Shown one piece after another: positions 33,194 through 35,957 of a DNA stretch of 35,957 bases (within the stretch, counting starts at the first letter, position 1; every line of letters begins with the position of its first letter). The DNA lies in sequence record SRR20825010_214; one strand, given 5' to 3'. The notes beneath the pieces were generated by a model that did not search any database, was not told the origin of the DNA, and was given only the letters and a program-made list of their open reading frames with translations. Made by a program: the position numbers and the translations under genes.

Positions 33194-35800
33194 ATGCAGC
33201 AGCCACCTAAGCTACCCTTGAAAATCCTTCGATTCTTCTGTGCTGAACATAGGCTGGAAGAAATTGAAGGTGATTTATTCGAGGAGTTTCAAGACCAAGT
33301 TCAATCAAAGGGCTATAAAAAAGCCAAGAGACTGTACTACTGGACTATCATCCGCTCATTTCGAAGTTACCTTTTCGACTACCAAAGTAACTCCACTCAT
33401 CCTTTAAGCTTTATTACCATGATTCGACACTATTTAAAAACAGCATTCAGAGGTATGTATAAGCATAAGAGCTTTACTGCTATTAATATTTTGGGTTTGA
33501 GTCTTGGTCTAGCCTGCTTTACTCTACTCTCACTATTTATCACAGATATAATTTTGAAGGACAACTTCATTCCGAACCGGGCCGAAATTTATCGGTTGGA
33601 AGTATTAAACCCGCTTGATCTCACAGATAAATATGAAGCCAGAACCCACCCTGATTTTGGAGTCATTCTAAATAGAAATTATCCGCAAATAGAAAATTAC
33701 CTTAGAATTAACGCGCTCAATAAAAACATGACAATCACCGTGAAAACAGGTGACAAGAAGGAATTCTATAAACAAAGGGGACTAGAAGCTGACTCATCGT
33801 TTTTCAGTTTCTTTCCTTTCGAGCTAATTACCGGAAATCAAAAAGAAGTACTCTCAGAACCTCATAGCATCATTGTTACCGAAAGTATGGCCACCGTGTT
33901 ATTTGGAGAGGAGGATCCAATTGGAAAGACTATTTATTTACCACGACAAGGAGGAGCCGATTATACAGTAAAGGGGGTTTTAAAAGATATTAAAGAAAAT
34001 TCCAGTATTCAGTTCGACTATATAATTTCCAATAATATCTCCTATGATATCGCATCTGGAGCCTACTCGCCTTCCGTTAACTATTTAATGCTTTCATCAG
34101 GAACTGGCACCAAAAAGCTAATAGCAGGTTTTAACAACACCATTACGGAAGCTGGGGCAGCAAAACGTTTACAAAACTTAAAATACAGACTTACTGAATT
34201 TGAAGAGGCTAAATTCGACACGGAGTCTTCTGACAACGTTATTCAGACCATAAACAAAGGCACAGTAGTACTCATTGCCATAGTGGCTTTGCTTATTTTA
34301 ATTTTAGCAGTATTTAATTACATCAACCTCACTGCGGCTCGTGCTCTTCAAAAAGGACAGGAAGCTGGAATACGAAAAATAATTGGGGCGGGCAGAGGCA
34401 GCTTTATTTTCCAGTTCTTGACGGAGTCACTCATCTTCTGCATAATATCAATGTTGGTTTCTCTCTTAGTGCTGGAAGTTTCATTGCCCTATTTCGAATC
34501 CATTCTTGGCAACCCTCTCCATTTCGACTATAAATCCAGCCTCCCATTCTTTCTAGTTTACGTTGGATTAATCGTTCTGTTGGCCCTGCTTTCAGCACTC
34601 TATCCCGCTTTGTTGGTATCGAGATTTAGGTTTAGCGAATTCCTCAAAGGAAAGGCCATGTCATCAACAAAAGGCAACATGCTGAGAAAAGGGCTGGTGG
34701 TTTTCCAATTCAGCATCTCCATAATTTTGACACTAGGAGCGGTCATGGTTCAAAAACAGCTGAGATATATTCAAAACGAAACTTTAAGCTACAACCCTGA
34801 GCAAATTCTTATTGTCGAACATGCGGTTTCTTCCAATCTCGATGACTTTAAAAAATCCTTAAAAGACATCCCTGAAGTATCCATATCAAGCCTTACCTCT
34901 AGTCCTCCAGGGGCCGAGAGTCTTTACGCTTCTGGCGCAATAGCTGAACTCGATATTCGAGGCTATTACCATCGGATTGACGCAGACTATATTGACATGC
35001 TCAAACTCAAAATCACAGAAGGGGAGAGCTTCGATAGCAAATTAACTTCGGATATTGATCAAGGTGTGATCATCAATGAGACAATGGCCAATATCATCAG
35101 ATCGAAAAACCCTATGAATCTTGAGTACCCCCTTTCTGGGAAATATTCATTTCTAGCTATCCCGACTAAAATCCGAGGAGTAGTAAAGGATTTTCATCTT
35201 GGCTCATTCCATAATGAAATACAACCTATGACACTGTTCTATCATGATTTTACTGGTTATTCCGGAGCAAGGGTTATGATTAAAGTGAGTACAACCAACA
35301 TCTCTGAAACGCTTGACAAAATCGAAACCAAATGGAATGAGTTTATACCCAACTCTGAGTTTGGAGTTGAGTTTATGGATGCGAAGTTCGATCAGCTTTA
35401 TACGACTGAAACCCGATTGGCGAGCATTTTCAATCTCTTCACTGGAGTCGCTTTGTTTATTTCTTGCCTAGGCCTCTTAGGGCTTATTGGCTTTATTACT
35501 GAGTCGAAAATCAAAGAAGTAGGCATTAGAAAGGTAATGGGCGCTTCAGTAGGACAAATCCTGTTTTTATTCACAGGACAGGTGTACAAACTGGTATTAT
35601 TGGCTTGTCTTGTGGGCATTCCCGTGGCCTATTGGCTTATCAATAGCTGGCTCGATAATTTCGCATATAAAACCAGCTTCTCATTGGACTTGGCACTCTT
35701 GGTGATGGTTTCCATGTTCGTCTTAACTAGCCTCACTATTATCCTTAAATCAGCTAAAGCCGCTACACATAATCCAGTGGACGCTTTGAGGAGCGATTAA
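33194..35800 (+). CDS. MacB/FtsX-type ABC transporter permease with N-terminal 'permease prefix' domain
   Basis: QPPKLPLKILRFFC...EEIEGDL prefix; INILGLSLGLA, NYINLTAA, GIRKIIGA, LVVFQF, KEVGIRKVMGAS, NPVDALRSD. Confidence 0.92.
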   Translation: MQQPPKLPLKILRFFCAEHRLEEIEGDLFEEFQDQVQSKGYKKAKRLYYWTIIRSFRSYLFDYQSNSTHPLSFITMIRHYLKTAFRGMYKHKSFTAINILGLSLGLACFTLLSLFITDIILKDNFIPNRAEIYRLEVLNPLDLTDKYEARTHPDFGVILNRNYPQIENYLRINALNKNMTITVKTGDKKEFYKQRGLEADSSFFSFFPFELITGNQKEVLSEPHSIIVTESMATVLFGEEDPIGKTIYLPRQGGADYTVKGVLKDIKENSSIQFDYIISNNISYDIASGAYSPSVNYLMLSSGTGTKKLIAGFNNTITEAGAAKRLQNLKYRLTEFEEAKFDTESSDNVIQTINKGTVVLIAIVALLILILAVFNYINLTAARALQKGQEAGIRKIIGAGRGSFIFQFLTESLIFCIISMLVSLLVLEVSLPYFESILGNPLHFDYKSSLPFFLVYVGLIVLLALLSALYPALLVSRFRFSEFLKGKAMSSTKGNMLRKGLVVFQFSISIILTLGAVMVQKQLRYIQNETLSYNPEQILIVEHAVSSNLDDFKKSLKDIPEVSISSLTSSPPGAESLYASGAIAELDIRGYYHRIDADYIDMLKLKITEGESFDSKLTSDIDQGVIINETMANIIRSKNPMNLEYPLSGKYSFLAIPTKIRGVVKDFHLGSFHNEIQPMTLFYHDFTGYSGARVMIKVSTTNISETLDKIETKWNEFIPNSEFGVEFMDAKFDQLYTTETRLASIFNLFTGVALFISCLGLLGLIGFITESKIKEVGIRKVMGASVGQILFLFTGQVYKLVLLACLVGIPVAYWLINSWLDNFAYKTSFSLDLALLVMVSMFVLTSLTIILKSAKAATHNPVDALRSD

Positions 35801-35821
35801 AAAATCGTTCTTTTTCTAAAC

Positions 35822-35863
35822 AAAAAACCAGTCACTCTTTTGAATGACTGGTTTCGTTTTTTT
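35822..35863. terminator. Bidirectional intrinsic terminator
   Basis: AAACCAGTCA-N10-TGACTGGTTT, flanked by an A run on the left and a T run on the right, between the convergent permease and tRNA. Confidence 0.85.
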
Positions 35864-35906
35864 GGTGGTACATACTGCCCCGAAGCTTCGGGGCGAACCG
35901 ATGACC
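35863..35906 (-). pseudogene. Degenerate duplicate of a tRNA 3' half with a palindromic insertion in the T-loop
   Basis: Minus strand GGTCATCGGTTCG-[CCCCGAAGCTTCGGGG]-CAGTATGTACCACCA versus tRNA GGTCACTGGTTCG-[AATC]-CAGTATGTCCCAC. Confidence 0.8.
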
Positions 35907-35928
35907 ATTTAAATTAGCCACATTCAAG

Positions 35929-35957
35929 TGGGACATACTGGATTCGAACCAGTGACC
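35929..35957 (-). tRNA. tRNA 3' portion (T-arm and acceptor strand), probably tRNA-Val; extends beyond the window
   Basis: Minus strand GGTC-ACTGG-TTCGAAT-CCAGT-ATGTCCC-A: perfect T-arm, discriminator A, C70 (so no Ala G3:U70). The anticodon is outside the window, so identity is inferred. Confidence 0.8.

Follow-up and report, generated by a model that had tools for sequence, protein, structure and literature searches.

What is an incomplete copy of a tRNA gene, with a palindrome in place of part of its T-loop, doing behind a tRNA gene, and from where could it have originated? The question is raised by the end of a 35,957-nt stretch of DNA from sequence record SRR20825010_214 (hereafter the window, to the whole length of which all coordinates without a locus name refer), the source genome being that of a marine Roseivirga. 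Integrative elements classically settle in tRNA genes, and a stray piece of tRNA sequence is as a rule put down to an integrase. Comparison of the window with related genomes points to another source, and we consider the fragment, with a probability of about 0.6, to be an old relic, lacking an open reading frame (ORF), of a family of small selfish GIY-YIG nuclease cassettes residing at tRNA and transfer-messenger RNA (tmRNA) genes.

The feature itself is real. On the minus strand, a tRNA-Val(GAC) gene runs off the window end, so that only its last 29 nt (35929..35957) are included, from the variable loop through the T-arm and the 3' acceptor strand to the discriminator. They agree completely or almost completely with the 3' end that ARAGORN assigns to tRNA-Val(GAC) in four loci of relatives (L001, L002, L003 and L004), and Rfam also recognised the gene of L001, with 69.3 bits. 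Because the gene is truncated by the window end, ARAGORN called zero tRNAs in the window, and Rfam likewise detected no tRNA at its end. Behind a 22-nt spacer (35907..35928, minus strand), which contains no terminator, there follows a 44-nt partial duplicate of the tRNA-Val 3' part (35863..35906, minus strand; variable loop through 3' end, with CCA in addition). Repeat search aligned it with the tRNA end in two direct repeats of 12/13 and 11/13 identical positions, and the orthologous loci identified the repeated gene as tRNA-Val(GAC); the displaced duplicate recognised in a preliminary description of this DNA stands. Read along the minus strand, the fragment consists of GGTCATCGGTTCG (35906..35894), CCCCGAAGCTTCGGGG (35893..35878) and CAGTATGTACCACCA (35877..35863). 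Its middle part, a 16-nt palindromic sequence hereafter called the plug, substitutes AATC of the T-loop GGTTCG-AATC-CAGT and forms with its flanks a perfect 18-bp palindrome (35877-35894, 9+9 nt, 100%), just as had been read from the sequence before. As single-stranded DNA (ssDNA), the plug folds into a 7-bp stem closed by an AGCT loop (centroid -8.5 kcal/mol, z -2.6). An independent public assembly (run X1) spans 35600-35957 with one change, T>G at 35869, while the contigs of runs X2-X4 take in small parts only; as G at this position restores the tRNA's own acceptor sequence in the fragment, what differs is either the strain or the assembly. The 14-mer core of the plug occurs once in the window, which by itself is weak evidence, since 11 of 100 window shuffles also contained at least one match to this core at no more than two mismatches. 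The significance of the plug comes from the relatives.

The orthologous loci were found with the neighbouring transporter permease as an anchor, which lies outside the element and is 88% identical in R. echinicomitans, 86% in R. ehrenbergii and 87% in a Roseivirga metagenome-assembled genome. The genus-wide search of 36 genomes revealed the locus in six of them (G001, G002, G003, G004, G067 and G083), so that seven sequences, the window included, could be compared; in the family-level DNA search, only the tRNA matched in all 60 genomes other than G001. The plugged fragment is present at the same position in all of the six genomes except G002, in which the terminator directly follows the tRNA. 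The 22-nt spacer is kept in the six fragment-bearing sequences, forming together with the fragment start a GTGAC..GTCAC inverted repeat in three of them. Changes in the palindrome arms between species are not compensated (CCCCAAAG.., ..CTTTGGGG, CTCCTAAA..), the palindrome being perfect only in the window copy and having a mismatch or a wobble in the other five of six copies, and the T-stem strands of the fragment are unpaired in three of six. The stem strand ACTGG, as in the tRNA, is kept in three fragments (G004, G067 and G083), thus the ATCGG of the window, earlier taken as the mark of a chimeric T-stem, is a later mutation. The encoded CCA, also pointed out in the preliminary description, is indeed present in the window copy, but it is shared with G001 only (two of six fragments) and is incidental. 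The fragment is therefore old, vertically inherited via at least six Roseivirga species and decaying, and the window copy is a decaying leftover without evident present function. A candidate collapsed ORF (ATG..TAA) in the spacer at 35907-35928 was considered as well and was dropped, no convincing match to it having been found.

The first thought at such a locus is an attachment (att) site scar of a lost island or prophage, integrated in the T-loop by a tyrosine integrase, and a direct repeat of a tRNA 3' end is the classic att signature. The preliminary description leaned towards this origin. The repeats, however, stand 22 nt apart in all six fragment-bearing genomes. The nearest PF00589 match in G001 is located at C12:185890, about 42 kb away from the locus (228.6-229.1 kb), and this integrase is a housekeeping-type 329-aa frame kept also in G003 and G004. 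Moreover, the core is interrupted by a 16-nt palindrome, while integrase crossover would leave an identical core. Finally, the same plug is found in D-loops, anticodon arms and 5' fragments of tRNA genes, and a crossover in the T-loop does not yield such pieces; the att scar is rejected. We regard this origin as highly improbable.

The distribution of the plug was established by counts in the sister genomes, not in the window's own genome. At no more than one mismatch, the 14-mer core has 11, 7, 18 and 10 sites in G001, G002, G003 and G004, respectively, versus 1-2 sites of the reversed control, and exact copies occur at 55 sites in 18 of the 36 genus genomes versus a single reversed-control site. 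The flanks were read for all 46 sites of G001-G004, and 18 of them proved to be in the loops of tRNA copies that are partial or disabled. Plugged T-loops were seen in copies of tRNA-Val, Ala, Gly, Met and Thr, and plugged D-loops in 5' fragments of tRNA-Arg and tRNA-Leu; generally, the plugged 5' fragments upstream of tRNAs carry the plug in the D-loop or in the anticodon arm. An intact tRNA is encoded nearby, in the same transcription unit, for all the plugged copies except L021, a lone tRNA-Met fragment. In this respect the other proposal of the preliminary description, a tiny sequence-targeted palindrome, has gained ground, as the palindrome is dispersed, multi-copy, sequence-defined and recurrent in tRNA loops. 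Its supposed scattering through Bacteroidetes has not been borne out, since the exact 16-mer was found in only two of 400 other Bacteroidota genomes sampled. Both of these sites are outside tRNA genes, one being terminator-like and the other unexplained, with neither a tRNA nor a GIY-YIG ORF at either locus.

One of the loci with plugged 5' fragments deserves separate mention. In G003 (L049, contig C4, positions 150-330), three tandem 5' fragments, each comprising the acceptor strand and the D-arm with the D-loop swapped for a plug variant, stand about 5 nt apart ahead of tRNA-Arg(UCU), between its promoter and the mature 5' end, and no ORF is present there.

The same counts bear on the possibility that the palindrome arose in place, through a template switch at the quasi-palindromic T-arm during a local tandem duplication. 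The T-loop TTCGAA is itself palindromic, and one strand has CGAA or CGAG next to the plug in all the T-loop cases that were examined, as could be expected from such an event. Identical 14-16-mers, however, reside at the 55 genus sites with unrelated flanks and in contigs of other phyla; therefore, this multi-copy distribution refutes template switching as the sole explanation, and a purely local origin is to be considered extremely doubtful.

If neither an integrase nor a local rearrangement is responsible, with what is the plug associated? The search of G001-G004 with PF01541 yielded 34 matches, including 25 small ORFs, 13 of which are situated at a tRNA or tmRNA gene: the tmRNA and tRNA-Val(UAC) genes are occupied in all four genomes, tRNA-Asn in two and tRNA-Ala in one. 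An intact unit begins with the tRNA and a terminator; an ORF of 78-96 aa comes next, then an incomplete copy of this tRNA and once more the terminator. In the tRNA copy the anticodon arm and/or the T-loop is swapped for GC-rich hairpins of the CCCGA..TCGGG type, which in the Roseivirga cassettes are CCCCGAAGCTTCGGGG or its close variants. Thus, L062 comprises tRNA-Ala(GGC), a terminator, an 82-aa GIY-YIG ORF and a tRNA-Ala copy with both the anticodon arm and the T-loop replaced, while in L072 tRNA-Asn is followed by the ORF and by a tRNA-Asn copy bearing two plugs; at tRNA-Val(UAC) the unit is repeated, twice in tandem in G001 (L074) and three times in G065. Overall, plug-like hairpins accompany 10 of 27 distinct GIY-YIG loci. 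Among the sister genomes the small GIY-YIG ORFs are 78-119 aa long. The NCBIfam search of these proteins gave no family above the cutoff, one ORF gave a sub-threshold match to PF19835 (SegE; 19.9 bits vs the cutoff of 25), and the nearest solved structures for the tRNA-adjacent proteins were those of UPF0213, 1ywl and 1zg2 (E 8.5e-7). According to blastp, the proteins fall into two classes. Class A is tRNA-adjacent, with 30-42% identity, and includes the ORF of the metagenome contig L146 (see below). Class B, to which the ORF of another metagenome contig (L135) belongs, has a C-terminus of the NPEW type and lies within GTCATGCTGT.. repeats.

In the genus, the class-B genes (100-119 aa; L075 1350-2250, L031, L043, L044, L051, L052 and L121) are embedded in repeats that begin with AAGTCATGCTGTAAGC, may or may not contain the plug and share the GTCAT motif with the published Ssn-related repeats. 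At the tmRNA loci (L060 in G003, L063 in G002, L065 in G001 and L113 in G004), the GIY-YIG gene, coding for 78-89 aa, is located 200-300 nt behind tmRNA, and the interval holds several hairpins derived from the tmRNA 3' end (CCACC..GGTGG) and not the usual plug.

The cassettes are polymorphic between relatives. The tRNA-Ala locus has the ORF in G001 and the plugged copy only in G003 and G004, with the flanking genes unchanged; the window fragment, too, is in this ORF-less state. At tRNA-Asn, the gene is naive in G001 and followed by the full cassette in G002 and G004, while G003 and G067 retain a footprint consisting of the cassette terminator and the first 12 nt of the ORF. The T-loop of the tRNA-Asn copy is unplugged in G002 and plugged in G004, i.e., the hairpin is gained or lost separately from the tRNA duplication.

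Cassettes of this kind were also found beyond Roseivirga. Contig L146, distant and high in GC, has behind its tRNA-Met a homologous ORF, with 33-37% identity to three tRNA-adjacent Roseivirga ORFs (those at tRNA-Ala, tRNA-Asn and tRNA-Val(UAC)), and then a 3' copy whose T-loop bears the same 16-mer in place of GTT. The class-A profile gave matches in 37 of the 60 other Bacteroidia genomes sampled; among the best 29 class-A loci, 22 have a tRNA or tmRNA gene on the same strand at most 600 nt upstream, and in at least 19 of these 22 the ORF is followed by a hairpin-substituted tRNA copy, as judged by eye from the printed sequences. Related TCCCG..CGGGA hairpins are common beside the tRNA-linked nuclease genes of Bacteroidia, and in one such genome (L186) the plug, TCCCGCG-loop-CGCGGGA, coincides with the core of the published Neisseria repeat NTS. 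The metagenome scan with a 21-mer retrieved 31 contigs, in 17 of which the plug forms the apex of a longer GTCAT..hairpin..ATCTC hairpin, several of the contigs being near-identical; in L135, GTCAT-type hairpins flank the GIY-YIG ORF on both sides, one of them plugged and the other not.

In view of the conserved position of the fragment, another reading has to be weighed, namely that it is a selected functional part of the tRNA-Val unit, such as a structure for 3'-trailer processing or termination, or a tRNA-like decoy RNA or DNA. Between the fragment and the permease gene lies a bidirectional intrinsic terminator (35818..35861; 20-nt arms, 80% complementary), conserved in all seven sequences and common to the FtsX-like gene on the plus strand and to the tRNA-Val transcription unit on the minus strand; both of the only two matches that Rfam gave for small RNAs at the window end were sub-threshold and fell on its hairpin. 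The gene in question is the anchor permease of the MacB/FtsX-type ABC transporters (868 aa, 33194..35800, plus strand; PF02687, E 1.1e-23; PF12704, E 2.6e-21). As the terminator is located beyond the fragment, the latter lies within the tRNA-Val 3' trailer, and it does so at the same place in six species, inside the transcription unit and with a stable hairpin, which would suit a functional element, as would the full-length plugged copies of tRNA-Val that G001, G003 and G004 have upstream, complete with duplicated promoter spacers. Selection for structure is, however, at variance with the above-mentioned non-compensatory arm substitutions, with the mismatches or wobbles in five of six copies and the unpaired T-stem strands in three of six, as well as with CCA being encoded in two of six copies only, with the absence of the fragment from G002 and with the failure of the Rfam tRNA model to recognise the plugged copies. 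A function of this kind is therefore quite unlikely.

The upstream copies just mentioned are worth describing in their own right. Ahead of the intact tRNA-Val(GAC), G001, G003 and G004 possess one or two near-full-length copies of it that bear this plug in the T-loop, each accompanied by a duplicated promoter spacer of about 130 bp (L001 12941-13030, L110 1880-2150 and L004 12955-13045), and these copies may be transcribed. The window stops short of the region that would match them, while the public contig of run X1 extends about 5 kb further.

Several facts speak against the relic of a nuclease cassette as an explanation of the fragment. No GIY-YIG ORF is present at the tRNA-Val(GAC) locus in any of the seven sequences or, by hmmsearch, in the 36-kb window, hence the fragment can be called an ORF-less relic; the former presence of an ORF at this locus is inferred only, and the fragment may have been formed in trans, or an unrelated duplication may have produced it. 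No cassette part convincingly matches the 22-nt spacer, and the 'empty' allele of G002 may represent a secondary deletion instead of an ancestral empty site. Many plugged fragments, namely those of tRNA-Arg, Leu, Gly, Thr and Met, have no nuclease gene nearby. The cassette proteins are bare GIY-YIG catalytic domains, PF01541 being the sole domain above the cutoff, and the intact tRNA beside a cassette keeps the presumed target sequence, which simple homing does not explain. Last but not least, 28 of the 46 sites (about 60%) are not in tRNA copies; they belong to several unrelated repeat families and unique contexts, and two of the families, AAGTCATGCTGTAAGC.. and TGTCATTGCGAG..CGAAGCAATCTC, occur each with and without the plug.

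The latter observations would be accounted for if the palindrome were an autonomous micro-element resembling repetitive extragenic palindromic (REP) sequences and moved by some other enzyme (e.g., a REP-associated tyrosine transposase, RAYT, of the Y1 type), the GIY-YIG genes being unrelated neighbours and the accumulation in dead tRNA copies reflecting the neutrality of such hairpin-rich DNA. Not only the many unrelated contexts but also the filled/empty pairs, in which the plug varies independently of its surroundings, agree with this, as do the 4-8 PF01797 matches per Roseivirga genome and the landing of an element similar to the insertion sequence (IS) IS3 beside plugs, as some ISs do with REPs. 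Indeed, REP/REPIN sequences with their RAYTs share with the plug the short palindromic form, the presence in tens of copies, nesting in other repeats and use as IS landing sites (PMC3116915, PMC3733652). On the other hand, a plug-like hairpin was found at none of 12 strong Y1-transposase loci, six of which are flanked by one of two distinct REPs of their own, whereas the GIY-YIG loci carry plug-like hairpins in 10 cases of 27 and the same 16-mer adjoins GIY-YIG ORFs in two unrelated metagenome contigs; besides, neither a GTAG nor a CGTC tag adjoins the plug in the window. Considering this, we find a REP-like element an unlikely explanation. The REP families of the Roseivirga RAYT-like genes (L161-L167, in G001-G003) are ATAGCCCACGGTTTAAACCGTGGGCTAT and GGATGGGC..GCCCATCC, both unrelated to the plug.

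As to the IS3-like element (end ..GTATCGTCCTGAAATAGGTTGAC, followed by the start of a transposase-like ORF), it or its miniature inverted-repeat transposable element was encountered 5-35 nt from a plug at four independent sites (L110 2150-2279, in G003:C3; L040 and L054 of G003; L038 of G004), and one copy disrupts the anticodon stem of a plugged tRNA-Val copy. This suggests that the IS3-like element prefers plug hairpins as targets.

The preferred reading, a cassette relic, can be compared with three known systems. Among the closest are the Ssn enzymes, single-domain GIY-YIG nucleases that cut ssDNA beside the hairpin repeats flanking their genes (Chenal et al., PMC11893778). They were described in 2025, so that the preliminary statement of no described mechanism for the spread of such palindromes is in part out of date, although tRNA genes did not enter that description. 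Like the Ssn proteins, the nucleases of the cassettes are very small and single-domain: SsnA of Neisseria meningitidis has 94 aa, the size given for the family is about 94 and up to 150 aa, and the ORFs of the sister genomes, with their 78-119 aa, fall within it. GC-rich hairpin repeats flank the nuclease genes and are dispersed genome-wide in both cases (here, at 10 of 27 loci and 55 sites, respectively), and some Roseivirga genomes have the 14-mer at the centre of CGTCAT..hairpin..GAATCT repeats that resemble the NTS. The differences are that tRNA has no occurrences in the available text of PMC11893778, whereas here the hairpins sit inside partial tRNA copies and the genes behind tRNA or tmRNA, and that the search motif of the published SRM repeats, HGTCWY..hairpin..RNCYNB, had no matches in the window and one in 179 kb of the window plus metagenome loci, although the hairpin core alone fits the SRM motif (YYVSBRH / WNVSBRG, read by eye). 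In addition, the tRNA-adjacent proteins in question, nearest to the UPF0213 structures, are putative ssDNA nucleases known from sequence.

With SegB, a free-standing homing endonuclease of T-even phages, the cassettes have in common that the GIY-YIG gene lies between or behind tRNA genes (here, at a tRNA or tmRNA gene for 13 of the 25 small ORFs and 22 of the 29 loci of the class) and that relatives differ in its presence, as they do here at tRNA-Ala and tRNA-Asn. The recognition sequence of SegB is GGTTCRANTCC, with cleavage at tRNA gene 3' ends (PMC2330249), and it is this core, the T-loop motif, that is broken by the plug (GGTTCG|AATC|C). SegB drives tandem amplification, both in cis and in trans, of segments made of tRNA and nuclease genes (PMC13096335), which has a counterpart in the two to three tandem units described above. 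SegB-like enzymes, however, possess a separate C-terminal DNA-binding domain (PMC3664794), in contrast to the ORFs considered here, which code for the catalytic domain only; SegB is phage-borne, whereas the cassettes reside in the bacterial chromosome, and hairpin-plugged partial tRNA copies are not reported for SegB in the accessible portions of PMC2330249 and PMC13096335. The third parallel is provided by fungal mitochondria, in which mobile endonuclease ORFs duplicate the 3' end of the invaded gene (atp6, atp9, cox2 and nad3 of Glomus and atp6 of Allomyces; PMC3630166). The order is similar, i.e., a gene with a replacement 3' end, an endonuclease ORF (GIY-YIG in atp9) and the displaced native 3' end as a dead copy downstream; the invaded genes are organellar protein genes, and no loop-specific hairpin substitution is described in the part of PMC3630166 at hand. 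Mitochondrial GC clusters and hairpin elements are separate elements (PMC4478555, PMC2800124).

By analogy with these systems, the origin of the fragment could be envisaged as follows. A nuclease of the family would break the DNA of a tRNA gene in or near the T-arm, and recombinational repair would duplicate a part of the gene, in cis or in trans, as with SegB. The spare copy would carry the hairpin interrupting the T-loop motif and would thereby be useless both as a tRNA and as a nuclease target, and the hairpin would probably serve also as the nuclease's own ssDNA recognition site, like the NTS/SRM repeats of the Ssn enzymes. This scheme is extrapolated from SegB, the Ssn enzymes and the mitochondrial endonuclease ORFs; the architecture of the units, their association with tRNA genes, their polymorphism and decay are direct observations. 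Chromosomal mini GIY-YIG cassettes accompanied by hairpin-plugged tRNA copies were not encountered in the open literature searched, although the supplement of PMC11893778 may hold tRNA-adjacent cases. To this picture the window adds a Roseivirga-specific hairpin variant and a well-documented relic state.

A bolder version is conceivable, in which the plug would be a self-propagating module of 16-18 nt that overwrites, in bacterial lineages far apart, the apices of DNA hairpins (arms of tRNA genes, SRM repeats, terminator-like stems), aided by single-domain, Ssn-like GIY-YIG ssDNA nucleases, the NTS/SRM repeats possibly being descendants of plugged tRNA T-arms. We put it forward tentatively and consider it rather improbable. 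The supposed location of the plug at hairpin apices is judged from the tRNA loops and SRM cases, read by eye. In computational apex tests, the flanks of the Roseivirga sites formed 7.24 pairs in minimum free energy folds versus 6.31 after shuffling, and the longest perfect inverted repeat between the 16-nt flanks was 3.93 versus 3.58 for Roseivirga and 4.88 versus 3.63 for the metagenome sites. The flanks of the Neisseria NTS, GTCAT...GAATCYRG (PMC11893778), resemble the T-arm region of the window tRNA-Val, GTCAC...GAATCCAG (35894-35957), which is a post hoc match; the sequence likeness hints at a derivation of the Ssn-related repeats from plugged tRNA T-arms. If the self-propagating module were true, tRNA genes would be the ancestral target of this nuclease family and the plug would rank among the smallest mobile DNA units known.

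As for the relic of a nuclease cassette, its meaning extends beyond a single Roseivirga locus. It represents another source of tRNA fragments besides integrases, namely tiny nuclease cassettes which would duplicate pieces of tRNA genes and mark the spares with a defined hairpin. If the link to the nuclease holds, it would tie the Ssn ssDNA nucleases and the enigmatic hairpin repeats to tRNA genes, would provide natural nuclease/hairpin pairs for ssDNA tools and would caution against annotating tRNA copies interrupted by a hairpin as introns or att sites.

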